In this document: positions 16,403 to 40,124 of the stretch, piece after piece
How positions within the stretch are numbered: the stretch's first letter is position 1
Layout: every line of letters begins with the position of its first letter
Origin: a virus
Direction: 5' to 3' (one strand)
Length of the DNA: 64,000 bases
Virus record (IMG/VR): IMGVR_UViG_3300020112_001619
Translations under genes and position numbers: made by a program
The notes under the pieces: generated by a model
The model's database searches: none
The model's input: only the letters and a program-made list of their open reading frames with translations
What the model was told of the DNA's origin: nothing

Positions 16403-16846
16403 ATGTACAAAATGATATATGCAAATAATAAAAAAGTGTATTTCGACTATTTTATTGAAGACAAGTTTGAAGCTGGTATTGCTCTTGTTGGTACAGAAGT
16501 AAAAGGCTTAAAAACAAAAGGCTGCAGTATTAAAGAATCATATATTGATATCGTAAATGGCGAAGCATATATCATTCATATGCATATTGCTCATTATGAA
16601 CAAGGTAATATCTTTAACACTGATCCATTTAGAACTCGTAAATTATTGCTTCATAAACAGGAAATCAATAAACTTTTAGCTAAAACAACTGAAAAAGGCT
16701 ATACAATTGTTCCAACATCTGTTTACGAAATAAATGGTAAAATTAAAATCGAAATAGCGTTAGCTAAAGGTAAACACAATTATGACAAGCGAGCTTCTCT
16801 AAAAGAAAAAACAATTAAAAGAGAAATCGAAAAAGAGAGGTATTAA
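16403..16846 (+). CDS. smpB: SsrA-binding protein SmpB
   Basis: Near-canonical SmpB: AGIALVGTEVKGLK, IAHYEQGNIFNTDPFRTRKLLLHKQEINKL, YTIVPTSVY, KIEIALAKGKHNYDKR. Length 147 aa. Confidence 0.9.
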   Translation: MYKMIYANNKKVYFDYFIEDKFEAGIALVGTEVKGLKTKGCSIKESYIDIVNGEAYIIHMHIAHYEQGNIFNTDPFRTRKLLLHKQEINKLLAKTTEKGYTIVPTSVYEINGKIKIEIALAKGKHNYDKRASLKEKTIKREIEKERY

Positions 16847-16849
16847 CAA

Positions 16850-17515
16850 ATGGCAATAATTAAATATTACAAAAATGAAGAAGGTGAACTTAAAAGATTC
16901 ACAATAGATGTTGATGATAATCCACCTGATCCTAGATTAGAATTTGAAAATCTTGCACATATGTATATTTGGTGGAATCGATATTCTATGGGCGACAATG
17001 AAGGTGAAAGCAATCCTGATATTGTAATTAGGGATATTTTAAATACAATTGATCCATCATTTGATCCTGCTGACAAACCATTAAATGAACTTATTGTAAC
17101 ATTACAGACTCAATATACAGAGCAAATCAAAATCTTACCTTGTTTTGTATTAGAACATTCAGGTGTAATGGTTTCTTGTGCACCTTTTAGTGATAGCTGG
17201 GATTCAGGATTCGCTGGATTTATTTACATCTTAAGAGAAGAAGCTGATGACGCTGGTATTCTTTGGTCAGATGCTAGAACAAATATCTTAGCCGAGATTG
17301 ATACATATAATATGTATCTTTGTGGTCAGGTATATATGTTTGATCTTGACGATGACAATGGATACATTAGCGGTTATTATTCTGATAAATCAGAAAACGA
17401 ACTTATAAAAGAAATTCAAATAGAAGCTGGTTTAGGTGATGCCAGATTATATGACGAAGACGAAGTTATCGTTGAAATCATCGAAAAAATATCTTTAAAA
17501 CCAGGAGTTGATTAA
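16850..17515 (+). CDS. hypothetical acidic protein
   Basis: ORF with AGAGAGG ribosome-binding site. Confidence 0.5.
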   Translation: MAIIKYYKNEEGELKRFTIDVDDNPPDPRLEFENLAHMYIWWNRYSMGDNEGESNPDIVIRDILNTIDPSFDPADKPLNELIVTLQTQYTEQIKILPCFVLEHSGVMVSCAPFSDSWDSGFAGFIYILREEADDAGILWSDARTNILAEIDTYNMYLCGQVYMFDLDDDNGYISGYYSDKSENELIKEIQIEAGLGDARLYDEDEVIVEIIEKISLKPGVD

Positions 17516-17541
17516 AATCAAAACAACAAGGAGTATTAAAA

Positions 17542-19365
17542 ATGCCAAAAATTGCATGTACCGACCATTTAGGTAATGAATTTAAAAGTATTCAGAGTAT
17601 GTGCGATTATTGGCATATATCTCTAACAACTTATTCAAAACGAAAAAAACTTGGTTATTCTTTAGAAGATTGTTTAAATCACAAAAAATTATCAAAAGCA
17701 AAACCTGCTTTTGATCATCTAGGTAATAAATTTATATCAATAGATGCTATGTGTGATCATTATCACATTTCACGTTCAACATTTGAAAACCGCTTAGCTA
17801 GACATTGGCCATTATGTGAAGCTCTTACTAAAGAAAGATACAATAATTATTCTAAAGATAAAATATTGGATCATAAAGGTCAAGTTTTTGCTACTAAAGA
17901 TCAGTTAGCAAGTGCTTACGGTATATCAAGAATGACATTAGATGCCAGATTACGTAAAGGTATGAGTTTAGAAGAAGCTTTAACAACGCCTTTAAGAACC
18001 CACGGCTATACTGATCATTTAGGGAATTATTTTAAAAATCAGCATGAAATGGCTGAATTTTGGCATATTAATGAATCAACACTTGCTTTAAGACTTCGTA
18101 AAGGATTGTCTATAGAAAAAGCTCTTGAGGTTGTATCAATCGAAGTTACTGATCATAAGGGTATAACTTATCATTCTATGACTGCTATGTGTGATGCTTA
18201 CGAAATTTCACGATCAACAGTTGAACGAAGATTAGCTAACAGATGGTCACTTGAAGAAGCACTAACTTATCCATCCACAACACATAAAAAATTCAAAGAT
18301 CATTTAGGTAAAGAGTATAAGACTTTTGGATTAATGTGTAAAGCATGGAACATGCCAGATTCAACAGTTCAAAACAGATTATATAAGTTAGGATATTCAC
18401 TAGAAGATGCTTTAACAAAACCAACAAATACTCAAAATACAGTAGGTAAAACTTGTAAAGATCATTTAGGGAACGAATATCAATCAGTAGCAACTATGTG
18501 TTGTAATTATGGCTTACCTAGAAACGTATTTCATAGGAGAATAAAAGATAGTTGGGATTTAGAAAAAGCATTAACAACACCACCATCACGAGCAAACGGT
18601 CAAGGTAAAGTTATTTACGATCACAAAAAGAATGCTTATTCATCTGTTGGTGAAATGTGCAAAGCTTATGGAATTGATTTTGCAATGTATGGCTCCCGCA
18701 TTCGTCAAGGATGGTCATTAGAAAAAACACTCACAACGCCGCCTGAAGAAATACAAATAGGTAAAAAAGAATGTGTAGATCACAAAGGAAATCATTTTAA
18801 GTCACAAGCAGAAATGATGCGTTTTTGGGGTGTAACAAAAGATCAACTAAGATCAAGAATTGAGCTTGGCTGGACTTTAGCTGAAATCTTAGAGTCTCCT
18901 GCTCATCAAAGTCATAAAAGACCATGTGTTGACCATCTCGGTAAAAAATGGGCATCAAAAGAAGAAATGCTTGCACATTATGGTGTAAGTGGTCCAATTT
19001 TCAATCGAAGATTAAATGTTATGGGCTTATCATTAGAAGAAGCTTTAACAGGACATTCTCTTCATGCAAATCAGATGACTGATCCTTTAGGAAATTTCTT
19101 TGAATCAGTTTCTGATATGTGCGACGCTTGGGACACACCAACAGCCACATTTTACCATTGGTATAACAAATTATATCCAAACAACTTAAGAATGGCTCTC
19201 GTAAGACCAAAAACAAATTGGTCATATAAAGATGTAAAAATCATTAAAACTATTAATAAAAAGTTCTATGAGGTAATGATAAACAATCACACAGCAATAT
19301 GGACTCAAGAACAAATATGTGATTATTACATTAATAACTTTAAACCACATATCGAACCTAAATAG
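17542..19365 (+). CDS. tandem helix-turn-helix-like (NUMOD1-like) repeat protein, paralog 3 (about 11 repeats; 607 aa)
   Basis: Eleven consecutive units DH(L/K)GNxFxSxxxMCxxYxISRSTxxxRLxxGWSLEEALTxP. Distinct C-terminal domain (IWTQEQICDYY) shared with the 22763 paralog. Stop lies 10 nt upstream of the sigma factor start. Confidence 0.65.
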   Translation: MPKIACTDHLGNEFKSIQSMCDYWHISLTTYSKRKKLGYSLEDCLNHKKLSKAKPAFDHLGNKFISIDAMCDHYHISRSTFENRLARHWPLCEALTKERYNNYSKDKILDHKGQVFATKDQLASAYGISRMTLDARLRKGMSLEEALTTPLRTHGYTDHLGNYFKNQHEMAEFWHINESTLALRLRKGLSIEKALEVVSIEVTDHKGITYHSMTAMCDAYEISRSTVERRLANRWSLEEALTYPSTTHKKFKDHLGKEYKTFGLMCKAWNMPDSTVQNRLYKLGYSLEDALTKPTNTQNTVGKTCKDHLGNEYQSVATMCCNYGLPRNVFHRRIKDSWDLEKALTTPPSRANGQGKVIYDHKKNAYSSVGEMCKAYGIDFAMYGSRIRQGWSLEKTLTTPPEEIQIGKKECVDHKGNHFKSQAEMMRFWGVTKDQLRSRIELGWTLAEILESPAHQSHKRPCVDHLGKKWASKEEMLAHYGVSGPIFNRRLNVMGLSLEEALTGHSLHANQMTDPLGNFFESVSDMCDAWDTPTATFYHWYNKLYPNNLRMALVRPKTNWSYKDVKIIKTINKKFYEVMINNHTAIWTQEQICDYYINNFKPHIEPK

Positions 19366-19375
19366 GAGAAATCTT

Positions 19376-20530
19376 ATGAATACAACAACGAAAAATAAGA
19401 CAAAACAAACTAAAAATACATCATTGATTGATGATCCATTAGATTCTTCTATTTCATCATCTGATACATTAGATGAAGAACCTGAAGATGCAGACGTTGA
19501 ACCAGATATGGCTGATCTTGAAAGTATTGACGATTCACCTGATGCAGAGGCAGATGTTGCAAATTTAATAGCTTTATATGAAGCAAGCGACAAAGCATTA
19601 GATCCAGTAACACAATACTTAAGAGAAATTGGTACAATACCTCTTCTTTCAAAAGAAGATGAACAAATTTTAGGTAAACAAATAAGTGATCTAAAAGATG
19701 CAATTGCCGAACGTGATGAAATTTTAGAAAAACCTAAATTAACAAAAAAAGATGAAAAGAGATTAGAAAAGTTAAAAGTAACAATTTCAGAATGCACAAT
19801 TGCTAAAAACAAATTATGCGAATCAAATCTGAAATTAGTTGTTAGTATCGCAAAACGATATAATTTCAGATCGTTATCTGAATTTCTAGACATCATACAA
19901 GAAGGTAATTTAGGTCTTATCAAAGCAAGTGAAAAATTTGACTATACAAGAGGATTCAAATTTAGTACATATGCAACCTGGTGGATAAGACAAAGCATCA
20001 CAAGATCTATGGCTGAAACAGGAAGACTTATCAGATTACCTGTTCATATATCTGAAGATATCAATAGAATCAAAAGAGCGAAACGCAATATATTAGCCAA
20101 GACTAATAAAGAAGCTACAATTGAAGATATTGCAGCAGAAGTCAATTTACCTATTGATAAAGTAAAAGACCTTATTAGACTTGAACAGGAACCTATGTCA
20201 CTAAATATGACCGTAGGTGAAGACAATGATTCTACAGTAGGCGATTTTATACCTGATGATACATTGCAAACACCTGAAGAAAAAATGGCAGAACAAAATA
20301 TTCATGATGTGTTATTTGATGTATTCAAACAAGCAAAATTATCAGATAAAGAAATTGACATTATTTGTAGAAGAAACGGTATCGACCGACCTGATAAACA
20401 AACACTTGAAGAAATTGGCAAAGATTATAATATCACCAGAGAACGAGTGCGACAAATAGAAGCCAAAGTCGTTAAAAAATTGAGACATCCAAAATATGCA
20501 AAAATATTAAAAGAATTACTTGAACCGTAA
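19376..20530 (+). CDS. RNA polymerase sigma-70 family factor (primary-like, regions 1.2-4)
   Basis: Region 1.2 YLREIGTIPLLSKEDE. Region 2 DIIQEGNLGLIKASEKFDYTRGFKFSTYATWWIRQSI. Region 4.2 TLEEIGKDYNITRERVRQIEAKVVKKLRHP. ATG at 19376 with AGGAGA ribosome-binding site (ORF track start 19319 rejected). Confidence 0.85.
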   Translation: MNTTTKNKTKQTKNTSLIDDPLDSSISSSDTLDEEPEDADVEPDMADLESIDDSPDAEADVANLIALYEASDKALDPVTQYLREIGTIPLLSKEDEQILGKQISDLKDAIAERDEILEKPKLTKKDEKRLEKLKVTISECTIAKNKLCESNLKLVVSIAKRYNFRSLSEFLDIIQEGNLGLIKASEKFDYTRGFKFSTYATWWIRQSITRSMAETGRLIRLPVHISEDINRIKRAKRNILAKTNKEATIEDIAAEVNLPIDKVKDLIRLEQEPMSLNMTVGEDNDSTVGDFIPDDTLQTPEEKMAEQNIHDVLFDVFKQAKLSDKEIDIICRRNGIDRPDKQTLEEIGKDYNITRERVRQIEAKVVKKLRHPKYAKILKELLEP

Positions 20531-20596
20531 TTCATCAGATTGGAGGTTGGTATAAATATCAATCTCCAATACTTATTTAAAAAGGACAATAAAAAA

Positions 20597-20839
20597 ATGT
20601 TATCTGAAGAAATCATATTAAATAATTTCACAAAAGATGAAATAGATCAAATGTTAAAAATACTGCCTAAAGATGAACAAATTGTTATGCGAATGTATTT
20701 TGGAATAACATGTGATAAGCTTACTTTAGAGGAAATTTCAAATATGATAAAAATACCGGTCTGGCGATTAGAACAAGCAAAACTAAACAGCTTGATCGTA
20801 TTGGATGAAACATATGACATAGCAAACAGAATCGCATAA
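20597..20839 (+). CDS. small stand-alone sigma-70 region-4-like helix-turn-helix protein (80 aa)
   Basis: LPKDEQIVMRMYFGI...LTLEEISNMIKIPVWRLEQAKLNSL resembles ECF/sigma region 4. ATG at 20597. Follows a hairpin terminator at about 20531-20575. Confidence 0.45.
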   Translation: MLSEEIILNNFTKDEIDQMLKILPKDEQIVMRMYFGITCDKLTLEEISNMIKIPVWRLEQAKLNSLIVLDETYDIANRIA

Positions 20840-20853
20840 ACGGAGGAATAAAC

Positions 20854-21042
20854 ATGCCTGATAATACAAATCAGATTGATGAGATTATTAATGACATCAA
20901 TGAATTATTAAATAAACTACCTAAAGATCTACCACTTGAAATTGTAGATGAAGAAGGTAATAAAGCATGGCTACATTTAAAAAGTTTAGAATATGATGCT
21001 AACGACAATATCGTAAAAGTATGGTCAGAAGCAACAAATTAA
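20854..21042 (+). CDS. hypothetical protein
   Basis: ORF with GGAGG ribosome-binding site. Confidence 0.4.
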   Translation: MPDNTNQIDEIINDINELLNKLPKDLPLEIVDEEGNKAWLHLKSLEYDANDNIVKVWSEATN

Positions 21043-21057
21043 TTGAGGTGAAACATT

Positions 21058-21582
21058 ATGAAATATGTAAAAATTAATGCGTTATTACCAGTTCAAGAAG
21101 ACTATATTCCAGGCACATGGAATGATAATAAATCTACAAAAGATCAGATAGAATCACAGATATCAAATTCTGTAAGTGATAGCTTCTACGATGACGATTG
21201 TATATTAGACATTTCTTTTGTAGATGATGATACTGAAATGCTTATTGGTGAAACATTATATAATTCTGAAGCAAATGATAATGCCACATTCGTTTATGGA
21301 ATGTGTGACATGAGTGTTGCTGCTGAATTACCTGAAAATGAAGCAATTGAAATGCTTTCTCAAAACATTCTTATGGCTCCAGATAGTGTTACTTACTATT
21401 TATCAAATGCTCGTGAAAACATAGGTATGATTGAACGTAAAATCAAAGAAGATCTTCTTAAGATGCTTGATCATGAATGTGAAGTATTTGATCCAATATG
21501 TGATGGACCTGTAGAACTTGGCGAAGGTATTGGTATGGCCAGAGAATTTATCGAAAATTATTTTAAGGAACGAGGTATTTAA
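21058..21582 (+). CDS. hypothetical acidic protein
   Basis: ORF with GAGGTGA ribosome-binding site. Confidence 0.5.
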   Translation: MKYVKINALLPVQEDYIPGTWNDNKSTKDQIESQISNSVSDSFYDDDCILDISFVDDDTEMLIGETLYNSEANDNATFVYGMCDMSVAAELPENEAIEMLSQNILMAPDSVTYYLSNARENIGMIERKIKEDLLKMLDHECEVFDPICDGPVELGEGIGMAREFIENYFKERGI

Positions 21583-21584
21583 TT

Positions 21585-22400: not shown

Positions 22401-22406
22401 TAATAT

Positions 22407-22432
22407 AAGGCGATATTTATTATCGCCTTTAT
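22407..22432 (+). terminator. rho-independent terminator
   Basis: AAGGCGATA-TTTAT-TATCGCCTT hairpin. Confidence 0.6.
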
Positions 22433-22444
22433 AGGAGAAAAAAC

Positions 22445-22744: not shown

Positions 22745-22762
22745 AAAAAGGGATGATGTAGT

Positions 22763-23905
22763 ATGACACCACATACAGCAAAACAACATGAAGACCATTT
22801 AGGTAATGTATATCCATCTTTTGCAGACATGTGTAAAGCATATAATAAACCTAGCAATACTGTAAGAAACAGACTTGATAGAAATTGGACATTAGAGCAA
22901 GCATTAACAATTGATAATAAAAATACAGCTGTTAAAGTTAAACCTATCAAAATATGGACTGATCATTTAGGTAATGAATTTCCAAGTGTTCGAGCTATGG
23001 CTGAACATTATGGGATTACTGAAAAAATATTTTGGTCAAGAAAAAGAATACTAAATTGGCCACTAGAAAAAATCTTGACAACACCAATTCAAGATATGGA
23101 CGCTCCGGCAAATGCCATACCAATTGTTTGTAATGGTATTGAATTTAAATCAGTAAATGCATTATGTAAATACTATTGTATACCAAGAACAACTTTTAAA
23201 TTAAGGTTACAACAAGGATATACACCAGATGAAGCCGTAAATATTAAACCGAAAAAAACAAAAGGTTTGGTAAAAACAAAAATAACAGATCCCTGGGGAA
23301 AAGAATTTCCATCTTTGGCTGCATTATGTAAAGAATATCATGTCACTAAAGATTTAGTGAGATCACGATTAGATTTAGGCTGGACTATGGAAAAAATTTT
23401 AACAAATCCTCAAGTCATAGATCCACACAAACCATGTATCGGACCTGACGGAAAACAATACGATGGTTTTAAAATTATGGCAGAATCTTTTGGATTATCT
23501 GAATCAACACTCAGAGGTCGATTAGCTCAAGGATATTCATTAGAAGATGCTATTTATAATTGGGAAAATAACATATTTCATCCTCAAACAGATCATCTTG
23601 GGAATAAATTTAATGCTACAGCTGATATGATGCTTTACTGGAATATTTCAAATAGTTCATATTGGGCTTATATGAAAAGACGAAATATTGTAAATCCAAC
23701 AGATAAAGATAAAGCAAAAGTATTAGACGTTATCAAGCCAAAAAAGAAATTTGCAGATATTACAATTGTAAAAAAAGTTGCAAAAAATTATTATGAGATA
23801 TGTAAAGATAATAAAAATTATATTTGGTCACATGACCAAATATGGAATTATTATCGAAGCACTATCAATATAGTATTTGAGAAAGGAGACTTATGCAATA
23901 CGTAA
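22763..23905 (+). CDS. tandem helix-turn-helix-like (NUMOD1-like) repeat protein, paralog 4 (about 7 repeats)
   Basis: Repeats DHLGNxxPSxxxMCKxYxxxxxTxxxRLxxxWTLEQALT. C-terminal NYIWSHDQIWNYY is related to the 17542 paralog. Confidence 0.6.
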   Translation: MTPHTAKQHEDHLGNVYPSFADMCKAYNKPSNTVRNRLDRNWTLEQALTIDNKNTAVKVKPIKIWTDHLGNEFPSVRAMAEHYGITEKIFWSRKRILNWPLEKILTTPIQDMDAPANAIPIVCNGIEFKSVNALCKYYCIPRTTFKLRLQQGYTPDEAVNIKPKKTKGLVKTKITDPWGKEFPSLAALCKEYHVTKDLVRSRLDLGWTMEKILTNPQVIDPHKPCIGPDGKQYDGFKIMAESFGLSESTLRGRLAQGYSLEDAIYNWENNIFHPQTDHLGNKFNATADMMLYWNISNSSYWAYMKRRNIVNPTDKDKAKVLDVIKPKKKFADITIVKKVAKNYYEICKDNKNYIWSHDQIWNYYRSTINIVFEKGDLCNT

Positions 23906-24216: not shown

Positions 24217-24241
24217 TCGATTCTAAGTAAAGGTATAAAAT

Positions 24242-28037: not shown

Positions 28038-29417
28038 ATGATTGAACCATTAGCTTCTATGATGCGACCACAAACTTTAGACGAAGTATTTGGTCAAGAA
28101 CACATTTTATCTTCTGGCAGATTGCTTAGAAGAATGATTGAGGCCGACATATTGTCATCAATTATTTTGTATGGTCCACCAGGTACCGGTAAAACTACAA
28201 TTGCTACAATAATTGCTAACACAACTAATTGTGAATTTGAAGCAATTAATGCAACAACAGCTGGCAAAGCTGATATGGTAAAAATAACGGACAAAGCAAT
28301 CAAAAATCTAAAAGAGAACAATAAACGAACAATTATGTTCATCGATGAAATACATAGATTCAACAAAGCACAGCAGGATTATCTATTACCATTTGTCGAA
28401 AAAGGTATCGTTATTCTCATTGGTGCTACAACCGAAAATCCATATTTTGAAATTAATGGTGCATTGTTATCAAGATCTAAGATTTTTGAATTACATCCAT
28501 TGGACAAATCAGCTATGAGCCAAATTATAGACAGAGCAATTTTGAAACTAAACATAGAAGCAAAAAATATAAATATTGCTTATGATATTGTATTAACACC
28601 AGATGCCAAAGATTTCTTTATCAATATTGCAGATGGTGATGCAAGACAGATTTTAAATGCTCTCGATCTAGCATACCAAACAACTGAATATGATGACGCC
28701 GGTATTATGACGATCAACTTAGAAGTTGCTGAAGAATGTATTCAGAAAAAAATCAAACAATATGATAAAAATGGTGACAACCATTATGATTCTATATCAG
28801 CATATATTGAATCTATCAAACATTCTGAAGTAGACGCAGCACTTTACTATTTGGCAAGAATGCTCGATAGAGGTGAAGATCCGAAATATATAGCACGACA
28901 ATTAATTAAGATTGCATCAAGAGATATTGGAACTGCTGATCCATATGCTTTAACATTATGCGTGAGCACATTTTTAGCAGTAGAACGAGTAGGTATGCCT
29001 GACTGTAAATTCGGTCTTGCTGAAGCCACTGTTTATACATCACTCGTTCCAAAATCTAACACAGTAACATCTGCGTTAGAACTTGCAATGGAAGATGCTT
29101 CAAATCTATCTAACATTGAGATACCAACAACTCTTAAAGATGAATCTTACAAATCAGCATGGAAATTAGGTCACGGTGGCGTATCTGATGTATTTGCATC
29201 ACCTATTAATTACGATGGCTTTGAATGTATGCCTGAAGATTTAGTAGGTAAACGATACTATTATCCAAGTGATTTAGGTAAAGAAATCGACATGAAAAAG
29301 TACAATGATTGGAGATTAAAAGTAAAAGATGCTGTTAATCAATATATCAGCGAACATCCTGAAGATTTAATCCCACAATCACCGAACAGACCGATTAATC
29401 CAAATACACAAAAATAA
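28038..29417 (+). CDS. rarA: RarA/MgsA AAA+ ATPase, copy 2 (diverged paralog of 10329..11609)
   Basis: MRPQTLDEVFGQEHILSSGRLLRRMI...LYGPPGTGKTT, IMFIDEIHRFNKAQQD, and C-terminal YDKNGDNHYDSISAYIESIKHSEVDAALYYLARM. Confidence 0.85.
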   Translation: MIEPLASMMRPQTLDEVFGQEHILSSGRLLRRMIEADILSSIILYGPPGTGKTTIATIIANTTNCEFEAINATTAGKADMVKITDKAIKNLKENNKRTIMFIDEIHRFNKAQQDYLLPFVEKGIVILIGATTENPYFEINGALLSRSKIFELHPLDKSAMSQIIDRAILKLNIEAKNINIAYDIVLTPDAKDFFINIADGDARQILNALDLAYQTTEYDDAGIMTINLEVAEECIQKKIKQYDKNGDNHYDSISAYIESIKHSEVDAALYYLARMLDRGEDPKYIARQLIKIASRDIGTADPYALTLCVSTFLAVERVGMPDCKFGLAEATVYTSLVPKSNTVTSALELAMEDASNLSNIEIPTTLKDESYKSAWKLGHGGVSDVFASPINYDGFECMPEDLVGKRYYYPSDLGKEIDMKKYNDWRLKVKDAVNQYISEHPEDLIPQSPNRPINPNTQK

Positions 29418-29422
29418 TAAAT

Positions 29423-31808: not shown

Positions 31809-32108
31809 ATGCGAAAAAACTCAAGAATGCATATTAGTGCTGAAGTAATAGCAACAATAGTGGTAATCGCTATAATAGCAATACCTGTATTAGCAACAAT
31901 GCTATATAAAAGTGTTGCAGGTAACAGAGTTTTTATTGACACAACTTACAAATATGAATCGGCAATCGTAAGGTTGCCAGACGATACCATTATTGAAGGC
32001 CCAGTTACAAAATGGTCAGATTATGAAGATGGTGATCAAATACAAGTTGAAATTGAAGGTGTTACATATTTAGTACATGCTTCAAACATAGTATTAAAAA
32101 CAAAATAA
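31809..32108 (+). CDS. NfeD-like short membrane protein (TM plus OB-fold beta domain)
   Basis: N-terminal TM helix, then GPVTKWSDYEDGDQIQVEIEGVTYLVHASNIVL resembling the NfeD C-terminal beta-barrel. First gene of the SPFH operon. Confidence 0.4.
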   Translation: MRKNSRMHISAEVIATIVVIAIIAIPVLATMLYKSVAGNRVFIDTTYKYESAIVRLPDDTIIEGPVTKWSDYEDGDQIQVEIEGVTYLVHASNIVLKTK

Positions 32109-32125
32109 ATAAAGGAGTATAGCCT

Positions 32126-32557
32126 ATGGATTTAATATTGGTGTATCTAATAACCTATATTGTGGGATTTGCAATCATATTTGCAACATCTATGGCTATT
32201 GTAAAACGCACATACAATGCATCAGCACTATTATTAGGAATATTAGCAGCTTTTATAGTACCGTTAATTTTTGAAATAATATTATTCAAAGCGTTTGAAA
32301 CACATAGTGATGAAGGCACAATCATAGGTTCTTACAACTTAGTAAAAAGTGAATATATAATCCCACAATCATCAGGTTCACATATTCAGATCATCTATGA
32401 TTGTGATGGAGTATATAAAAGTAGTGATCTTCAAAATAAAAAAGTATTACATGATGATGGTGAATCCAGAATCGTTCTAATCGAAAAACGATGGGGATTT
32501 TTAACAAATACTATTGAAGAATACTACATAAATGATGTTAATAACGGAGGAGAATAA
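32126..32557 (+). CDS. NfeD-like membrane protein
   Basis: Two or three N-terminal TM helices plus a soluble beta-rich C-terminal domain. Immediately upstream of the SPFH pair. Confidence 0.4.
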   Translation: MDLILVYLITYIVGFAIIFATSMAIVKRTYNASALLLGILAAFIVPLIFEIILFKAFETHSDEGTIIGSYNLVKSEYIIPQSSGSHIQIIYDCDGVYKSSDLQNKKVLHDDGESRIVLIEKRWGFLTNTIEEYYINDVNNGGE

Positions 32558-32559
32558 AA

Positions 32560-33543
32560 ATGTACTCAGAAGACGTTAAATTTGCCAGAACAATTATCAA
32601 TATTGTTTGTGGCGTAATTCTTGGACTTTTTGTTATTATCTGCATTGCCAGATGTTTATTTCAGGTAAGGGAAACCGAATCAGTAGTTGTTACAAATTTT
32701 GGTGTACCTAGACTTGTTGAAGAAAAAGGTTTGCAGACAAAGAAACCTTGGGAGAAAAAGACCAGAGTTGATACAACTGTTAAAAGTTTATCTGTTGGAT
32801 ATTATCAGGATCAGGAATCGGGTGAATATCACGAAATTCCTTCTGAATCAATCATGATTACATCTGATTTTAACCTGTTAGATATTGATTTCGATATTCA
32901 GTATCGTGTCAGTGATCCTATTCAGTATTTATATGCATCAGATGATCCTGATACAATTCTTAAAAATATTGCGATGTCAAGCATTAGAAGTGTAGTGTCA
33001 GCATACTCTGTAGATAGCGCTATTACTACAGGTAAATCAGGTATTCAGGCTGCTGTTAAACAGTCAATTATTGATGAACTCAACGAAAGTAACATTGGAA
33101 TTACTCTTGTAGATGCTGTAATCCAGGACGTAGAACCACCTACAGTAGAAGTAAACAATGCATTTAAAGAAGTAGAAACAGCTAAGCAGGGTAAAGAATC
33201 TGCACTCAATGAAGCACGAGCATATCAGAATCAGGAAATTCCTAAGGCTGAAGCTGATGCAGATAAGATTGTTCAGGAAGCTGAGGCTACAAAAGCAGCA
33301 CGTATCAATGAAGCAAATGCTGAAGTTGCTGCACTTAATGCGAAATTTGAAGAATACAAGAGATATCCTCTAATCACTAAGCAGAGAATGTTCTATGAAA
33401 CAATGCAGAAAGTACTTCCATCTGTACGAATCCTTATTGATACAGAAGGAGACGGTGTTTATAAGCATTATAGCTTAAGTGATTTAGAAAAAAATACTCA
33501 GAAAGTAACACCTATTATTGAAACTGACGGAGGCGAACAGTAA
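32560..33543 (+). CDS. SPFH/band-7 protein, HflK-like
   Basis: N-terminal TM, SPFH domain, and Ala/Glu-rich coiled coil (KAEADADKIVQEAEATKAARINEANAEVAALNAKF) typical of HflK. Confidence 0.7.
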   Translation: MYSEDVKFARTIINIVCGVILGLFVIICIARCLFQVRETESVVVTNFGVPRLVEEKGLQTKKPWEKKTRVDTTVKSLSVGYYQDQESGEYHEIPSESIMITSDFNLLDIDFDIQYRVSDPIQYLYASDDPDTILKNIAMSSIRSVVSAYSVDSAITTGKSGIQAAVKQSIIDELNESNIGITLVDAVIQDVEPPTVEVNNAFKEVETAKQGKESALNEARAYQNQEIPKAEADADKIVQEAEATKAARINEANAEVAALNAKFEEYKRYPLITKQRMFYETMQKVLPSVRILIDTEGDGVYKHYSLSDLEKNTQKVTPIIETDGGEQ

Positions 33544-34538
33544 TGTCAAACGAAACAAAAGTTAAATTCAGACTGCCACTTCTGGTATGGATTATTATTA
33601 TCGGTATTATTGGTGCAATCATCTTTTCAATGTGCACATATACAACAAAAGCTGATGAATATGCTGTTAAATATCAATTCGGTAAAATTGTCGATATTGA
33701 AACTGAACCAGGCTTAAAGACAAAGACACCTTTCATTCAGTCAATCAAAAAGATCAAAAAGCCATCTCGTCTTTATGACTTAAGTGCTTCAGAAGTCATT
33801 ACTTCAGATAAGAAGAACATGATTATTGATGCTTTTGTTGTTTGGCAGATTAATGATCCTAAGATTTTCACATCATCACTTAATGCATCTGATACAACAG
33901 CACAGTCTCGACTTGACACAATTGTATTCAATGCAATTAAAACAACAGTCTCTAGTATGACTCAGGACGAAGTAATTGCATCAAGAAATGGTACAAAAGA
34001 TATTGAAGTTGTAGAAACAACACTTGATGATGTAACACTTCAGGAAGCAGCTACTACCGATGAAACAAAAGACGTAAAAATTATTTCTATTTCAGATAAA
34101 TTAATGGCTGCTATTGGTAATCAGTGTGATCAGTATGGTATTAAGGTCACAAATATTGAAATTAAGATTTTGGACCTTCCTGATGAAAATAAAAATGCTG
34201 TATATAATCGAATGATTACTGAAAGAAAGAATATTGCAACAGCATATACAGCTCAGGGTCAGTCTGAAGCTCAGAAGATCAAGAATGATACTGATAAGCA
34301 GACATCAATCATGCGATCAGAAGCTGATGCCACAAAGGCTAAAACAATTGCTGAAGGTGAAGCTGAATACATGAGGATTCTTGCAAGTACATACAATAAT
34401 CCAGAAAAGGCAGATTTCTATCTGTACACAATGGAGCTTGATACATTGAGAGAATCACTATTAAAAAATCCATATGACAATGTTCTTATTATTGATAAGA
34501 ATAGTCCATTTGCTTCATTGTTTAATGGTATTGAATAA
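33543..34538 (+). CDS. SPFH/band-7 protein, HflC-like
   Basis: N-terminal TM, SPFH domain and coiled coil. Translationally coupled to the upstream HflK-like gene (ATG overlaps its TAA). Confidence 0.7.
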   Translation: MSNETKVKFRLPLLVWIIIIGIIGAIIFSMCTYTTKADEYAVKYQFGKIVDIETEPGLKTKTPFIQSIKKIKKPSRLYDLSASEVITSDKKNMIIDAFVVWQINDPKIFTSSLNASDTTAQSRLDTIVFNAIKTTVSSMTQDEVIASRNGTKDIEVVETTLDDVTLQEAATTDETKDVKIISISDKLMAAIGNQCDQYGIKVTNIEIKILDLPDENKNAVYNRMITERKNIATAYTAQGQSEAQKIKNDTDKQTSIMRSEADATKAKTIAEGEAEYMRILASTYNNPEKADFYLYTMELDTLRESLLKNPYDNVLIIDKNSPFASLFNGIE

Positions 34539-34613
34539 CAATATATTTCAGGACTATGAGATGATCTTATAGTCCTGAATGATTATAATACTTAAACAGA
34601 AAGGAATTCATGT

Positions 34614-34856
34614 ATGACAACACCTTTTAGTATTGATTTAAACACAAATGAAAACAAAAAGCTTATAAAGGCTTTGCTTGATGCAATCGCACTTGATAAA
34701 GCACCATATCAGCTTGGCTCCAATACATTAGAAGATGCTGCAACTCTTAGATCAAAACTAGAATATGAAAGTTTCTGTATAAATCATGAAGTCCTTTATG
34801 AAGATATGACAGAAGACGATTTTGAACAAGCATATTATGAGAATTATACAGCATAA
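34614..34856 (+). CDS. hypothetical protein
   Basis: ORF with AAAGGA ribosome-binding site. Confidence 0.4.
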   Translation: MTTPFSIDLNTNENKKLIKALLDAIALDKAPYQLGSNTLEDAATLRSKLEYESFCINHEVLYEDMTEDDFEQAYYENYTA

Positions 34857-34868
34857 GGAGTGATAGAT

Positions 34869-35180
34869 ATGGATATTGGTCACAAAAGATTCATACGTAA
34901 GAAATACGAAGATGAATCGCATAATACCGCAATTATCGCTATTGACGATGATACAAATGAAGAAACAATCATCAGTACCAATTTATCTCATTGCGGGATA
35001 TATCTTTCAGAAGATTCCTTCGTTGTCGATCAAACAATTCTCGACAATAACGAAGATTTTATAAGAGCATTTGCTCTTGCATTTTGCGATATGTCTAAAA
35101 TCAAAGCAATTCGTGTCGGAAGCTACGATACGATCATCTTAACGTTGAATGATATCAACGAAATTGAAATGATTGCCTAA
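34869..35180 (+). CDS. hypothetical protein
   Basis: ATG at 34869, eight nucleotides after AAGGAG (ORF track GTG at 34860 lies in the ribosome-binding site). Confidence 0.4.
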   Translation: MDIGHKRFIRKKYEDESHNTAIIAIDDDTNEETIISTNLSHCGIYLSEDSFVVDQTILDNNEDFIRAFALAFCDMSKIKAIRVGSYDTIILTLNDINEIEMIA

Positions 35181-35229
35181 TCATATTGCAAAATTACAAA
35201 ATTAGTTTAGAATAGGAGAAAATCTAATC

Positions 35230-35850
35230 ATGGAAACACCAATTTACGGATCTGCTATGCCACATAGCGCAAATCTTGTACCAACTGTAATCGAACAGAC
35301 AAATAAGGGAGAAAGAGCATTTGATATCTTTTCCAGACTCAATAAAGAAAGAATCATCTTTTTAACTGGTGAAGTAAACGATGCTATGGCTAGTATCATT
35401 CAGGCACAGCTCTTGTTCCTTGAATCTGAAGATCCTGATAGTGATATTTACATTTATATCAACAGTCCTGGTGGATCAGTAACAGCCGGTATGGCTATTT
35501 ACGATACTATGAATTTCATCAAGCCTGATGTCGGTACAATTTGTACAGGACTTGCAGCATCTATGGGTGCATTCTTACTCTGTGCAGGAGCCGATGGAAA
35601 GAGAATCTGCTTACCAAATGCTGAAGTAATGATTCATCAGCCTTTAGGTGGATCTCAGGGACAGTGTACAGATATGCTTATTTCAGCAAGACATATTGAA
35701 AGAACAAGACATAAGCTTGAATCTATTATCGCTGCTAAGTCTGGAAAGACAATTGAAAAAGTTCATGAAGCATGTGAAAGAGATAATTGGCTTACTGCAG
35801 AAGAAGCAAAGGAATTCGGACTTATTGATGAAATCAAGGTTCATAGATAA
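35230..35850 (+). CDS. clpP: ATP-dependent Clp protease proteolytic subunit ClpP
   Basis: Catalytic triad context GLAASMGAF (Ser), MIHQP (His) and the Asp region. Typical length 206 aa. Confidence 0.9.
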
Positions 35851-35973
35851 TCCATAAATCCAAAAATAAATAATCATTTATAATGGGCATAAACAATGAG
35901 TTTATGTCCATCAATAAGTGATTATTCACTTATATTCAAATATCAAAACCTAAACAAAAAGGAGAAACAGCTT

Positions 35974-37206
35974 ATGTGTATTATTTGTGGTAACAACACA
36001 AAAAATGACTTAAACATTAAAACATATCAGGGAGAAGTATTTAGTATTTGTCCTAGTTGCTTTGAAGGTATTTTAAGACAGCTTACAAAATCAAATATGA
36101 TCGGAATCCCTGTTTATGCTTCTGGTGATGAGGACGATGATTACGAAGATTTCTACTATGAAACAGACGAAGATTTTAAGAATGCACTTAAAAAGCTTAC
36201 TCCAAAGCAGATTAAGGCAATTTTAGATCAGTATGTTATTGGACAGGAAGATGCAAAAACTGTCGTATCTGTAGCAATCTATAATCACTACAAAAGAATC
36301 ATTCATGATAGAACAGATATTCAGAAGTCAAATATCTTAATGGTAGGACCAACTGGCGTAGGTAAGACTGAAATTGCCAGAACTATCGCAAAGATTTTAG
36401 ATGTACCATTCGTAATTGCAGATGCTACTACATTGACAGAAGCAGGTTACGTCGGTGATGATGTTGAAAACATCCTATTAAAGCTTCTTCAGGCCGCCGA
36501 TTTCGATACAGAAGCTGCTGAGCATGGTATCATCTACATAGACGAAATTGATAAAATCGCTCGTAAAGGTGAAAACGTATCAATCACTAGAGATGTATCT
36601 GGTGAAGGTGTACAGCAGGCACTACTTAAACTTATTGAAGGTGCAAAAGTAAACGTGCCAACTCATGCTGGTAGAAAGCATCCTAGAGAAGAATGTGTCG
36701 AGATCGATACATCAAATATCTTATTTATTTGTGGTGGTGCATTTGAATCACTTACAATGGATAAAACAAAACATAATTCTTTAGGTTTTGTGACACCTGA
36801 ATCTGAAGACAAAAAGAAAAAGATCGATGCTAAAGATCTTATGAAACAGGGGCTTATTCCTGAACTTATCGGAAGATTACCTATTGTCGTAAAACTTGAT
36901 GAGTTATCAGAAAATGACTTAAAGCGTATCTTAGTTGAGCCAAAAAATAGCATCTTAAAGCAGTACACTCAGCTCATTGAACTTGATGATGTAAAGCTTA
37001 CAGTTGATGATTCAGCAATTGATTTTATTGCTAATAAGGCATACACAAATGAAACTGGTGCCAGAGGTTTAAAAGCTATCATGGAAGACTTCATGACTGA
37101 AATCATGTTTGAGATTCCAGATGACATGACCGTTGGTGAAATCATTTTAACAGCCAATGAAGATAACACAGAACTTACTTATAAGAGAATTGAAAGAGTA
37201 GCTTAA
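35974..37206 (+). CDS. clpX: ATP-dependent Clp protease ATP-binding subunit ClpX
   Basis: N-terminal C4 zinc finger (CIICGN...CPSCF), Walker [25 protein letters not shown] motif. ATG at 35974 with GGAG ribosome-binding site (track start 35896 rejected). Confidence 0.9.
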
Positions 37207-37268
37207 GAAACTATCTTTTAAATTATTCACATCAATCCTAATAATTTAGCTATATATAGCAAAACACT

Positions 37269-37297
37269 TGATGTATCGTCAAAAAAATGCTATAATA
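37269..37297 (+). promoter_or_regulatory. sigma-70-type promoter (TTGATG-17-TATAAT)
   Basis: TTGATG, 17-nt spacer, TATAAT, read upstream of the 37332 gene. Confidence 0.5.
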
Positions 37298-37331
37298 TAA
37301 TTAGAAAGAAATGGAAAGGAGATGCGTACTT

Positions 37332-37619
37332 ATGAGTGGTTTTTGGGAATCGCAGGCTGGTGTTGATACCGGCATAGCTATCCAAGAACTCGCCAAAGCA
37401 ACTAACAGAAGCAAAGCCACCAAATATGAGACAGAAATGCACATTAAGACTTTCGTCTTCAAATATGACTTCTCTCTTGACACAGGTAGCATCACTAATG
37501 CTGATAAGACGCTTGACGAATTCATCAAGGATAAACTTGTAATTGATCTAAAAGTCAACAGACTTGATGAGGAACATATTGCATACGTAGTTATGTACAA
37601 ATATGCACCTAAAAAATAA
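37332..37619 (+). CDS. hypothetical protein
   Basis: ATG at 37332, ten nucleotides after GGAG. Confidence 0.4.
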   Translation: MSGFWESQAGVDTGIAIQELAKATNRSKATKYETEMHIKTFVFKYDFSLDTGSITNADKTLDEFIKDKLVIDLKVNRLDEEHIAYVVMYKYAPKK

Positions 37620-37703
37620 ACAGATCAAAATATAAAGACTCACAATCTTAATCGTAACAAATTAGGCTGTGAGTCTTTACTATTAATAGGAGACTTAACT
37701 AAA

Positions 37704-38198
37704 ATGGATGACACATTTAAACTACTAGTAGTTGGATCAAGATCAATTAGAGATTATGATCTAATAAAAAAAGAATTAGATAAAATAATCGATAATCGTG
37801 TACCATTTGATCAAATTGAAATTGTAAGTGGTGGTGCAAATGGTGTTGATTCTTTAGTCCGTAAATATGCCCTAGATAACGGGTGCCAATATAGAGAATG
37901 TCTTGCTCAATGGCGTAGATATGGACGATCAGCTGGATATAGACGTAATTTCGACATGCATAAATACATTGCTGAGAGTAAATATAGAGCATGCGTTGCA
38001 TTTTGGGATGGTGTCAGTTCTGGTACAAAACATAATTTTGAACTGGCTGATCAATTCAAAAATCCATTAAAAATAATTCGTATAAATATCGGCCAGGCAT
38101 CTATAGAAGAATACATAATACCTGATGTAGCTGAAATAACTGAAAACGAATATGCTATTGAACAAGGTAATGCTAAAATTAACATATTAGCAAAATAA
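37704..38198 (+). CDS. SLOG/DprA-like Rossmann-fold protein (DUF2493-like)
   Basis: VVGSRSIRDY...EIVSGGANGVDSLVRKYAL...YRRNFDM...AFWDGVSSGT matches the DprA/Smf-type GxR...SGGAxGxD...RN...FWDG pattern. Confidence 0.5.
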   Translation: MDDTFKLLVVGSRSIRDYDLIKKELDKIIDNRVPFDQIEIVSGGANGVDSLVRKYALDNGCQYRECLAQWRRYGRSAGYRRNFDMHKYIAESKYRACVAFWDGVSSGTKHNFELADQFKNPLKIIRINIGQASIEEYIIPDVAEITENEYAIEQGNAKINILAK

Positions 38199-38221
38199 CA
38201 TTAAATTATGCGTATAAGAAC

Positions 38222-38265
38222 AATCAGCTTTGTTTATCAACGCTGATTAAATGTTTCTTTTTATT
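38222..38265 (+). terminator. rho-independent terminator
   Basis: AATCAGC-(13 nt)-GCTGATT followed by AAATGTTTCTTTTTATT. Confidence 0.65.
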
Positions 38266-38596
38266 AGTGTGGATGGCAGACCGCTATATCTTGTATGGCC
38301 ATCATCGGAGTTTTTCGTATGCTAACTACATTGGTGTTTTTCTCCGACTCATATCGTACAAGACACTTTAATGTAACATCTCCTGCGACAGTGGCAGCAT
38401 ATTAGGAGTGAGAGATTACAGATATGCTTCCTTTCTAAAAAAATTCATAAAACATAAATACATTTTATTAAAAATCATGTGCAATTAGTCCAAAATAATA
38501 AAAACATATTGTTGTATAGCCTAACATGTGTTATTGTATGAATATACACAACGTATATATTATATATAACAAAATTAAGAAGGAAGGTTTATACAA

Positions 38597-39208
38597 ATGT
38601 TAAGTGGACTTAAAAGCTATGACAAACTACAAGCTATGGTTGGTAAAAAAGAGACAAAAGCTAAATCAGTATCAATCATAGAATCAAAAACAAACGCCTT
38701 AATCAGAGCAATGGAACAAGATAACTTCCAATACTTTGATGGCGATCCAGAAAACGCAAGAATTGCCTTAAATACTTGTTATGACACAATTCGTGAGCAT
38801 GCTCAATCATTATCAAAAAGAAATGATAGAAGTAATGTCAATGAATCATTCAAAGAAGTATATCAAAGAACAGGAAACTCTGAAGGATTAGGAAATATCC
38901 AAACAGAAGAATCATCAGTAGAATCAAACATTGCAGAATCAAGAGTATATGCAAAAAACGCATTACAAAATTTAAACGCAATGTGTCGCCACTACAATAT
39001 TCCTGAATTTATGACGCAGGCTAATATGCAAAAAGGTGAAAATATTGATCAATTTGCAATTGCCTTCAATCAGAGGTATACTGATATTGAGAAGAGTGAC
39101 GAATTGTTCAAAGCATTTATGCAAGGTGGTAATACTAGAACACCTGAACTGTCAACCTCTGAATATCAGAATAATTATGATCAATCACCGAGAGGACCCG
39201 AAATATAA
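38597..39208 (+). CDS. hypothetical protein
   Basis: ORF with GAAGGAAGG ribosome-binding site. Confidence 0.45.
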   Translation: MLSGLKSYDKLQAMVGKKETKAKSVSIIESKTNALIRAMEQDNFQYFDGDPENARIALNTCYDTIREHAQSLSKRNDRSNVNESFKEVYQRTGNSEGLGNIQTEESSVESNIAESRVYAKNALQNLNAMCRHYNIPEFMTQANMQKGENIDQFAIAFNQRYTDIEKSDELFKAFMQGGNTRTPELSTSEYQNNYDQSPRGPEI

Positions 39209-39553
39209 ATGAATCCTGCGATCAGAAAAACAAACAATGCCGATAAAAGCTTATCGATAATAATTGAAAATGATTATTATAAAATAAGTGTTGTATATAC
39301 AGGTAATTATGATGATGATTTAAAAAACAATATGATTAATCAAGACAATATTGGTGTGTATATTATCCCATTTGATAAAAACTATCCTAAAATAAGATGT
39401 GTATATACAAATGTTGATAAACCAATTGATAAAATCATTACAGAAGGGTGTGTAGGCCCTGATACCGTAAATGCAATACATGCAGCTCAGGAAATGTTAA
39501 CATGTACAAAAACAATTATGAAACAATATTTTCCTGATATCTGGACAAATTAA
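39209..39553 (+). CDS. hypothetical protein
   Basis: ATG immediately follows the upstream stop. Confidence 0.4.
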   Translation: MNPAIRKTNNADKSLSIIIENDYYKISVVYTGNYDDDLKNNMINQDNIGVYIIPFDKNYPKIRCVYTNVDKPIDKIITEGCVGPDTVNAIHAAQEMLTCTKTIMKQYFPDIWTN

Positions 39554-39750
39554 AAAAAATCATAAGAGAGGTAACACATTATGGAAAAAATTTGGGGATA
39601 ACTATTATTAACTTAAATTAAAAAAATCATAAGAAAGGTATTACATTATGGAAAAAATTTGGGGATAACTATTATTAACTTAAATTAAAAAAATCATAAG
39701 AAAGGTATTACATTATGGAAGAAATTTGGGGCTAATTATTATTAACTTAA
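39549..39750 (+). repeat. three tandem direct repeats of 67-68 bp abutting the 5' end of the tmRNA gene
   Basis: Copies at 39549-39616, 39617-39683 and 39684-39750. Copy 2 is ATTAAAAAAATCATAAGAAAGGTATTACATTATGGAAAAAATTTGGGGATAACTATTATTAACTTAA. Each holds a Shine-Dalgarno-like GAAAGG plus the mini-ORF ATG GAA (A/G)AA ATT TGG GG(A/C) TAA. Confidence 0.9.
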
Positions 39751-40124
39751 GGGCTTGCAAAGGTTTCGACTGGGTATTATAAGTATCTCAAGCATGTAGA
39801 GGATGATGGACACCTCTTAAATCCGACATCAAAGAATAATCGCTAACGATTATGAAGAGCTCTGCGCAGCCTAGTAGCGCCAGCTAGTGTAAACTAGCCG
39901 TCAACTCATATGAGTATCACCGCTGTATCTCATATGGGCAATAGTAGCGGTTAAGCGATGAGTGAACTGAGATGGAACTCACCGACGAAAACTCCGGCGT
40001 CTTAGTGTGTGTATAGAAGCGTGTTGGTTTGCTAATTACAGGCACTATAAAGGGATAACCAAATAAACATGTAGAAAAAGATATGGAGATATTTAGGACA
40101 GGGGTTCGACTCCCCTCAGGTCCA
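39751..40124 (+). ncRNA. ssrA: tmRNA (SsrA), standard one-piece form; predicted tag peptide ANDYEELCAA
   Basis: 5' GGGCUUG-CAAAG-GUUUCGACUGGG matches the tmRNA 5' consensus. The 3' T-arm AGGGGTTCGACTCCCCT plus CAGGTCC pairs 7/7 with the 5' GGGCTTG (two G-U pairs). Tag reading frame is GCT AAC GAT TAT GAA GAG CTC TGC GCA GCC TAG TAG at 39842-39877, preceded by AATAATC as in the E. coli AAUAGUC resume context. Confidence 0.8.

Follow-up and report, generated by a model that had tools for sequence, protein, structure and literature searches.

Does one stretch of viral DNA encode a connected system for freeing stalled ribosomes and degrading the released products, or has a mobile genome collected separate housekeeping genes? 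The question is raised by IMG/VR virus record IMGVR_UViG_3300020112_001619, of which 64,000 nucleotides on one strand (the window) were analysed. The original prediction, made from these letters alone, recognised a transfer-messenger RNA (tmRNA, encoded by ssrA), SmpB, ClpP and ClpX, together with a four-gene block before clpPX that it assigned to HflK, HflC and two NfeD-like proteins, and it regarded them all as one toolkit on one phage segment. Our analysis points, with moderate confidence, to a phage-like element, most likely a huge phage, that gathered host-type quality-control genes piecemeal, keeps them under selection and would use them for ribosome rescue and protein degradation. With tmRNA, SmpB, ClpP, ClpX, HflK, HflC and a rhomboid protease (encoded 23 kb downstream of the tmRNA), the element carries one of the fullest ribosome-rescue and proteolysis sets on a phage-like element (Table 1).

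Ribosome-rescue and proteolysis genes

The tmRNA, SmpB, ClpP and ClpX are all present with intact motifs, at the positions predicted or within a few bases of them, as judged by Rfam, NCBIfam equivalogs and alignments. The tmRNA scores 146.7 bits against Rfam RF00023 (gathering score 47) and covers model positions 1-374. Its tag frame, read by ARAGORN, is ANDYEELCAA followed by two stops; the charged tRNA-like domain supplies the first Ala, and the full tag is AANDYEELCAA, 11 residues. In the Rfam alignment the 5' GGGCUUG pairs with the 3' CAGGUCC in an acceptor stem that includes the G3:U pair marking alanine identity, and the tRNA-Ala-like molecule also has a T-arm and an internal reading frame for the tag that closes with stop codons. 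The gene does not encode the 3' CCA, and completion of this end depends on host processing. It was considered whether ssrA might be a host gene bordering a prophage or a remnant of an att site, and this was rejected: the gene is full length, lies inside the element 23 kb from smpB, is unlike the tmRNA of Lachnospira outside the tRNA-like domain and is kept in L081, one of two syntenic relatives described below. The L081 tmRNA is 87% identical to that of the window and its tag is identical; neighbouring coding DNA is about 75% identical.

SmpB matches PF01668 (1.6e-55) and exceeds the cut-offs of two NCBIfam equivalogs (NF003843, 186.6 > 130; TIGR00086, 175.2 > 119.1), and the basic C-terminal tail GKHNYDKRASLKEKTIKREIEKERY is present. 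It is 87% identical to SmpB of the second relative, L087, and about 65% identical to SmpB of Lachnospira. On the Lachnospira contig smpB stands in the classical rnr-smpB-ssrA arrangement, and the tmRNA there encodes ANKELAIAA. The antepenultimate residue of the window tag is Cys, where the Lachnospira tag has Ile and the E. coli tag Leu. That ANDYEELCAA is unlike the host-type tag would suit an action against the host, in which tmRNA and SmpB titrate host factors or redirect tagged host proteins via a private tag, and truncated phage tmRNA-like molecules have been proposed as SmpB titrators (PMC4131195). However, the tmRNA here is full length, its tag frame is intact and the element encodes its own intact SmpB; a decoy would need none of these, and we consider an anti-host role highly improbable.

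Table 1. Features of the locus and ratios of non-synonymous to synonymous substitution rates (dN/dS) from comparison with the syntenic relatives
Feature	Position	Strand	Size	Description	dN/dS
smpB	16403-16846	+	147 aa	C-terminal tail GKHNYDKRASLKEK; Pfam and NCBIfam	0.05
ORF1	31809-32108	+	99 aa	Small single-pass membrane protein; first gene of the tight block before hflK	0.23
ORF2	32126-32557	+	143 aa	Two transmembrane helices and a beta-sheet domain; lineage-specific orphan	0.36
hflK	32560-33543	+	327 aa	N-terminal transmembrane segment and SPFH domain; PF01145; TIGR01933 197.8 > 159.4	0.15
hflC	33543-34538	+	331 aa	Start overlaps hflK stop by 1 nt; PF01145; TIGR01932 150.2 > 134.4	0.11
Acidic orphan	34614-34856	+	80 aa	Between hflC and clpP; 72% identical in L081, same position	0.14
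Orphan	34860-35180	+	106 aa	Directly upstream of clpP; 63% identical in L081	0.08
clpP	35230-35850	+	206 aa	Cellular type; Ser/His/Asp intact	0.09
clpX	35974-37206	+	410 aa	Divergent four-Cys N-domain, acidic linker, complete AAA+ module	0.06
Three tandem units	39548-39748	+	67 nt each	88-93% identical; end 2 nt before tmRNA; TRF score 357, 94% matches	
tmRNA (ssrA)	39751-40127	+		Rfam RF00023 and ARAGORN, full length	
Terminator-like hairpin	40217-40248	+		12-bp stem and T-run, 90 nt downstream of tmRNA; consensus match only	

Each of the three 67-nt units upstream of the tmRNA consists of a purine-rich run resembling a Shine-Dalgarno (SD) sequence, a mini-open reading frame (mini-ORF) and a -10-like box, TATTATTAAC. 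The mini-ORF (ATG GAA A/GAA ATT TGG GGN TAA) has six codons and encodes MEKIWG, or MEEIWG in the third copy. This motif occurs nowhere else in the window, with 0 occurrences expected by chance. Two copies of the unit precede the L081 tmRNA, with a different SD (GGAGGA) and the same mini-ORF and downstream box; none is found upstream of the Lachnospira ssrA, which has an ordinary TTGACT/-10 promoter there. The units are either a multiplied tandem promoter or a translated leader. A sigma-70 promoter scan was uninformative, yielding fewer matches than shuffled sequences did.

Under relaxed ARAGORN settings two sub-threshold, degenerate tRNA-like elements appear downstream of the tmRNA (40624-40694 and 40795-40871). 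The second folds like a tRNA-Cys(GCA) with weak acceptor and D arms, and has a 20-nt T-arm in common with the tmRNA (95%). A standard tRNA-Cys(GCA) is located at 16035-16128 in L081; a Cys codon occurs in the tag.

ClpP exceeds the cut-offs of PF00574 (1.5e-80; 269.8 > 20.2) and NF001368 (314.7 > 249) and scores just under that of TIGR00493 (304.6; cut-off 308.6). Its AASMG, MIHQP and ERDN motifs align with the catalytic Ser, His and Asp motifs of a solved ClpP chain (4emp), and it is 91% identical to its L081 counterpart. ClpX starts where it was predicted to start, 8 nt downstream of an AAGGAG ribosome-binding site, exceeds two equivalog cut-offs (NF003745, 508.8 > 359; TIGR00382, 478.6 > 370.75) and is 77-79% identical to its L081 counterpart. 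It aligns with solved ClpX over Walker A, the GYVG pore-1 loop, Walker B, the pore-2 loop, GRKHP, the Arg finger and sensor-2; the GARGL motif also aligns, the RKH loop is kept and the ClpP-docking (IGF-type) loop reads LGF. Checked for degeneracy, the ClpP triad and the ClpX pore loops, whose decay the original prediction had named as an argument against itself, are both intact. Two further features of ClpX had been proposed for checking. The tag-binding loops are kept. At the place of the zinc finger there are four cysteines (CIIC-x20-CPSC, that is, C-x2-C-x20-C-x2-C), and Pfam zf-C4_ClpX (PF06689) gives no match at E<=0.01. Among the 120 closest ClpX homologues, the four-Cys motif occurs in 112, and GYVG and RKH in all.

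ClpP and ClpX might instead serve virion assembly or maturation, or be packaged, rather than degrade tagged proteins. A jumbo-phage survey suggests that ClpX/ClpA may act as translocases or in assembly (PMC7824862), and the window ClpP also matches PHROG head-maturation protease families. A reading of ClpP as a prohead protease was nonetheless rejected, since its score against the ClpP-related head-maturation model is 101.7, below the cut-off of 120, and the protein exceeds the NF001368 cut-off for the cellular type. At 206 aa, ClpP has no scaffold or capsid part fused to it. The loops by which ssrA tags are recognised, RKH and pore, are intact in ClpX, and no structural gene lies nearby. We regard a virion role as unlikely.

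The HflK and HflC half of the predicted four-gene block stood: both proteins pass their equivalog cut-offs and have visibly hydrophobic N-termini, which are membrane anchors. They are 75% and 76% identical, respectively, to their L081 counterparts. The nearest named relatives of HflK are from Lachnospiraceae, at 57-65% identity, and include Candidatus Colinaster and Agathobacter; identity to HflK encoded on Lachnospiraceae chromosomes is 62-65%. Two Lachnospiraceae hflKC loci lie in ordinary chromosomal settings, beside AddAB or ribosomal protein genes, and neither the small ORFs nor clpPX are near hflKC in these two loci. A tblastn search for hflK and hflC in 50,697 GenBank phage records found only mis-filed Salmonella chromosome contigs and short fragments. 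In an alignment-based scan of IMG/VR, the sole contig with an hflK-hflC pair was the 49-kb IMGVR_UViG_3300028886_000137 (positions 10001-11737; 47% and 41% identity; 29.5% GC).

The NfeD half of the block did not stand. The label was tried on ORF1 and ORF2 and rejected, since neither gave an NfeD match when compared with Pfam (E<=10), NCBIfam and the sequences of the PDB. ORF1 has no match of any kind in Pfam, NCBIfam, PADLOC or PDB, and a 99-aa homologue of it occupies the same position in L081. ORF2 has six relatives among 1.84 billion representative proteins, none of them from NfeD-sized families (one sits on a 944-bp contig, where the context is uninformative), and its AlphaFold model (pLDDT 79.8) consists of a two-helix membrane hairpin and a beta sheet with no clear match to the NfeD/OB fold. 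Gaps of 17 nt and 2 nt separate the genes of the ORF1-ORF2-hflK stretch, and the two ORFs are probably co-transcribed with the SPFH genes. They are element-specific orphans, and their link to HflKC is one of position alone, kept in the relative. The 80-aa and 106-aa orphans between hflC and clpP have no family match in Pfam, NCBIfam or PADLOC. A defence-system reading was also rejected: PADLOC gave no match for ORF1, ORF2, HflK, HflC, these two orphans, ClpP or the Sir2 protein of the window, and generic AAA+ matches only for ClpX.

Syntenic relatives, selection and descent

The two syntenic relatives were found in public assemblies. L081 (21 kb) has the gene order of the window: endonuclease ... 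helicase ... MgsA ... LysM, ORF1, ORF2, hflK, hflC, orphans, clpP, clpX, YspA ... tmRNA. L087 (26.6 kb) carries NrdD ... dUTPase, SmpB and a helix-turn-helix (HTH)-repeat protein. When the window was compared with these relatives, synonymous sites proved to be near saturation (pS 0.39-0.70 for the five toolkit genes) and amino-acid change was small. SmpB, ClpX, ClpP, HflC and HflK are under strong purifying selection. GC content at third codon positions indicates that the toolkit genes are long-resident, because their values (0.20-0.26) match the element (0.21) and not the bacterial homologues (0.29-0.36).

The original prediction raised the possibility of a single acquisition. This is not supported by the affinities of the proteins, since SmpB and HflK are Lachnospiraceae-like and ClpX falls in a separate clade on phage-like contigs; the set appears, from these sequence comparisons, to have been assembled piecemeal and at different times. 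Bacterial hflKC and rnr-smpB-ssrA homologues stand in ordinary chromosomal contexts, unlike those of the element. The notion of a toolkit as one unit is not supported either: smpB stands with unrelated genes as its neighbours, 18 kb upstream of clpP.

The window ClpX belongs to a clade seen only on phage-like contigs of 147-575 kb. Among the best 120 ClpX matches, contigs carrying members of the cluster reach 575 kb. Two contexts of ClpX relatives, one from a 147-kb contig and one from a contig of up to 451 kb, have all genes on a single strand and are orphan-rich, carry a CCA-adding enzyme, a Ro-like RNA-binding protein, a ligase and methyltransferases, and are collinear with a 268-kb IMG/VR viral contig.

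Three long contigs, L002 (268 kb, IMG/VR), L089 (147 kb) and L090 (up to 451 kb), have in common a collinear block of a DUF2828/Ro-like protein, a 255-272-aa orphan and ClpX, followed by a CCA-adding enzyme. In L002 and L089, ClpP is encoded a short way beyond ClpX, with a few genes between them, but it was not found in the flank of L090; L090 holds a gene for a small acid-soluble spore protein. All three appear to belong to a single group of huge phages of spore-forming Firmicutes. A distantly related contig, L001 (IMGVR_UViG_3300029589_000009), has a nine-tRNA array and its own tmRNA (1657-2003; tag ADNSELLAVA) 8 kb upstream of a ClpX that is 57% identical to that of the window, as well as Sir2 and sigma homologues. 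A tmRNA and a ClpX of this clade are thereby found together in a second phage-like lineage.

The differences in origin and age among the toolkit genes, and the distance of smpB from clpP, would also be expected if the genes were unconnected morons, that is, independent housekeeping acquisitions, of the kind that huge phages accumulate from hosts, that bring small separate benefits or replace a host factor lost after shut-off, with no circuit and no link to HflKC. Other huge phages hold subsets of the genes (ClpP, ClpX and tmRNA in phage G; SmpB and ClpX in Lak; ClpX and tmRNA in L001), which fits the same explanation. Yet the order hflK-hflC-orphans-clpP-clpX-...-tmRNA and the exact tag are kept between relatives that are near synonymous saturation, and the pathway from tmRNA tagging to ClpXP is well established in bacteria. 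Unconnected acquisition is possible, and in our view doubtful.

The replicon and its probable host

All 94 ORFs of the window lie on the + strand. The sequence is 91% coding with a GC content of 31%, and its cumulative GC skew rises steadily. About 75% of the ORFs are orphans, and in the 74 ORFs that were not scanned individually against PHROGs, only 18 Pfam families were detected at E<=1e-5. The recognisable genes for DNA and nucleotide metabolism encode NrdD/NrdG, thymidylate synthase, dUTPase, guanylate kinase, RNase H, a Holliday-junction resolvase, a non-specific endonuclease and an HD phosphohydrolase; those for replication and transcription encode Dda/PIF1-like and SNF2-like helicases, two MgsA/RarA paralogues, an RpoD-like sigma factor and a fusion of a helicase with sigma region 4. 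The Dda-like helicase, NrdD/G, ThyA, dUTPase, RNase H, resolvase and sigma factors have PHROG matches. Sir2, a YspA/SLOG protein, the rhomboid protease, VanZ and DUF2339 are also recognisable.

The architecture and gene content are of phage type, and relatives are classed as viral, the relatives of ClpX coming from phage-like contigs and from IMG/VR UViGs that reach 268 kb. The claim that the genes share one phage segment is therefore plausible by context, although no structural gene was found in the window. We are fairly confident that the window represents the early or metabolic region of a huge phage, most likely; this is a judgement from architecture, gene content and the company that ClpX keeps, and not a demonstration. 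The window comprises 64 kb of what is probably a much larger genome, and the absence of virion genes here is weak evidence.

That absence could also mean that the segment is not phage DNA at all, and belongs to the chromosome or a megaplasmid of a bacterium, or to another large mobile element, with second copies of ssrA, smpB, clpPX and hflKC; large putative plasmids are known to carry analogous suites of translation genes (Al-Shayeb et al., PMC7162821), and the source, a JGI contig of 70,115 bp, is short. Such an origin is hard to square with one coding strand, an orphan fraction of about 75%, phage-type replication and nucleotide genes and a family of PVL_ORF50-like repeat proteins. Moreover, ribosomal, rep/par plasmid-maintenance and conjugation genes are absent from the window, the bacterial homologues of the toolkit genes occur in quite different, ordinary contexts, and the nearest ClpX relatives are on IMG/VR viral and phage-like contigs. 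A non-phage origin, the second circumstance that the original prediction had named as refuting it, is improbable. As for the host of the element, it most likely infects Lachnospiraceae of the gut, because the nearest named relatives of SmpB and HflK are from Lachnospira/Lachnospiraceae, at about 65% identity.

Other genes of the window are described here for completeness. At least five paralogous proteins (3979-4752, 5439-6383, 17542-19365, 22763-23905 and 55424-56173) contain tandem repeats of about 45 aa with the form DHLGN-F-S---MC--Y-I---T---R---G-SLEEALT, often with a conserved non-repeat tail at the end. The repeats match PVL_ORF50/HTH_psq and PHROGs 1065/3377/201, and the proteins, with their PVL_ORF50-like helix-turn-helix repeats, are predicted to form a large expanded family of DNA-binding proteins. 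The MgsA/RarA-type AAA+ paralogues (10329-11609 and 28038-29417) have cross-matches of about 50% identity in L081/L087; in genuine GenBank phages, among the matches listed, such proteins occur only in Bacillus phages G (51%) and SP-15 (45%). A full RpoD-like sigma factor with regions 1.2, 2, 3 and 4 is encoded at 19319-20530. The helicase-sigma fusion (46827-49607; 926 aa) joins an SNF2/DEAD-type helicase to sigma-70 region 4 and has no close relative in IMG/VR.

Membrane-related genes include those for the rhomboid intramembrane protease (63299-63892), a 683-aa polytopic DUF2339 protein (40973-43024) and a VanZ-like protein (43034-43597); together with HflKC they suggest that much of the gene set is devoted to remodelling membranes or to the quality control of membrane proteins. 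Both AT and GC skew dip in the 40-44 kb stretch. The Sir2-family protein (8855-9622) is 95% identical in L087 and 56% in the IMG/VR contig L001, and the YspA/SLOG-domain protein (37704-38198), just downstream of clpX, is kept in L081. Sir2 and SLOG domains are often linked to NAD or nucleotide signalling in phage-host conflict; PADLOC found no match for the Sir2 protein and weak matches only for the SLOG protein.

Proposed role and comparison with known systems

In bacteria, alanyl-tmRNA and SmpB enter stalled ribosomes and add a tag, and ClpX, whose pore and RKH loops recognise a C-terminal Ala-Ala-COOH, passes the tagged protein on to ClpP. We propose that during infection the element supplies tmRNA-SmpB, which would free ribosomes stalled on broken or non-stop mRNAs. 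Such release would matter while host transcripts decay and host expression is shut off, or when phage nucleases break mRNA. The freed peptides would bear AANDYEELCAA, and the ClpXP of the element, probably with that of the host, would unfold and degrade products ending in AA-COOH along with other substrates. HflK and HflC plausibly assemble in the membrane around host FtsH, given their identity of about 60-65% to host proteins, and would tune the degradation of membrane or regulatory proteins, as HflKC does in E. coli. We infer the step from tmRNA-SmpB to ClpXP from the established bacterial pathway; HflKC is linked to these parts by adjacency only.

Several points weigh against this reading. 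The dispersal of smpB has been noted above. The tag ends in CAA and not in LAA/IAA (the E. coli tag ends in LAA), and its recognition by ClpX is therefore assumed, not shown. Homologues of FtsH or SspB, for which the original prediction had proposed a search, are not encoded in the 64-kb window, nor are ClpS and Lon; without an FtsH of the element, the role of HflKC depends on an unseen host partner. Phage identity is circumstantial, because PHROGs and Pfam revealed no gene for capsid, portal, terminase or tail in the 94 ORFs, and a PHROG sweep of the flanks of the ClpX relatives was likewise without structural genes. No close relative was found in GenBank phages (megablast of 11 kb of the window; tblastn of element-specific proteins), in IMG/VR (scanned with the helicase-sigma fusion, HflK and the Dda-like helicase as queries), in GTDB species genomes or in JGI metagenome contigs, and a probe with the exact tag-coding DNA, run on these last three types of collection, returned nothing close. 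Exact-match searches with the ClpP, SmpB, HflC and HflK proteins of the window likewise yielded no contig. Finally, ClpP and ClpX have been found in virions of phage G (PMC12484599), suggesting that they may act in virion structure or assembly instead.

A more elaborate version of the rescue-and-degradation reading, to which we give little credence, joins all the parts into a private, self-regulated circuit: the element's own ClpX, from a phage-only clade with a divergent N-domain, would preferentially read the non-canonical ...ELCAA tag, which is kept exactly between diverged relatives, the translated MEKIWG of the triplicated leader would sense ribosome availability and so set tmRNA output, and HflKC with the two orphan membrane proteins would retune host FtsH, giving the phage control of both cytosolic and membrane proteolysis. 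Irrespective of this version, the locus supports the view that huge phages keep running, or re-aim, the host translation and quality-control machinery in long infections. The new pieces are a complete hflK-hflC pair on a phage-like genome and a conserved tandem mini-ORF leader directly upstream of a tmRNA, and the system allows a concrete test of whether a phage tmRNA tag and a phage ClpX are fitted to each other. The rarity of the element, with two relatives in public assemblies, and the lack of a known or cultured host limit its practical impact.

Compared with trans-translation and ClpXP in E. coli and B. subtilis, the element has all four dedicated components with their defining motifs, and its tag resembles that of E. 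coli in its length of 11 residues, its AAND start and its Ala-Ala end. It differs in that the genes are dispersed on a mobile element, away from the rnr-smpB-ssrA and tig-clpP-clpX contexts, in the antepenultimate Cys of the tag, in a ClpX N-domain too divergent for the Pfam zinc-binding domain, and in the lack of SspB. The E. coli HflK/HflC-FtsH system, which governs lambda CII stability, is matched by a pair that passes both equivalogs and has N-terminal anchors and SPFH domains; the pair is here encoded by the element, FtsH is missing from the window and no CII/CIII analogue was identified there. In E. coli, FtsH is enclosed by a large cage of HflK/C, which controls the access of membrane substrates (PMC12048511). 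Bacterial hflKC loci lack the two element-specific small membrane proteins that precede hflKC here. In having small membrane proteins directly upstream of SPFH genes, the block resembles the NfeD-SPFH operons ybbJ-qmcA and yuaF-yuaG, but its ORFs have no NfeD sequence signal at any threshold and, to our knowledge, HflK and HflC are not the usual partners of NfeD.

Among phages, those carrying ssrA have been surveyed (PMC4131195). Mycobacteriophages of cluster C (Bxz1-like) bear a full-length ssrA, as the element does; the survey lists them for ssrA only, and their hosts are unrelated. Some phages carry a single SPFH gene, such as Burkholderia phage CSP3 with its HflC-like moron (PMC10269572), and jumbo-phage surveys list ClpP and ClpX (PMC7824862). 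For huge phages, Al-Shayeb et al. (2020) reported tmRNA and SmpB (PMC7162821). By tblastn, the window SmpB has matches in 15 Prevotella phage records (identities below 60%), and the window ClpX in genomes of the Lak megaphages of Prevotella (about 48%); no hflKC was found in these phages, and their hosts belong to a different phylum. The 499-kb megaphage G of Bacillus differs in its tag (AKLNITNNELQVA), in having no SmpB reported in the literature compared, no hflK-hflC by tblastn and no DNA similarity to the window, and in infecting Bacillus and not Lachnospiraceae. It also offers parallels: its host is a Firmicute, it carries ClpP, ClpX and tmRNA, with both proteins detected in virions (PMC12484599, PMC4131195), its adjacent clpP-clpX genes (gp257/gp258) are 48% identical to the window pair, and its MgsA/RarA-like gp70 is 51% identical to the protein at 10329-11609. 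The gene combination is less unusual than the original prediction assumed, tmRNA with SmpB and ClpXP with tmRNA both being known from huge phages, and the phage-borne hflKC pair is its least precedented component.

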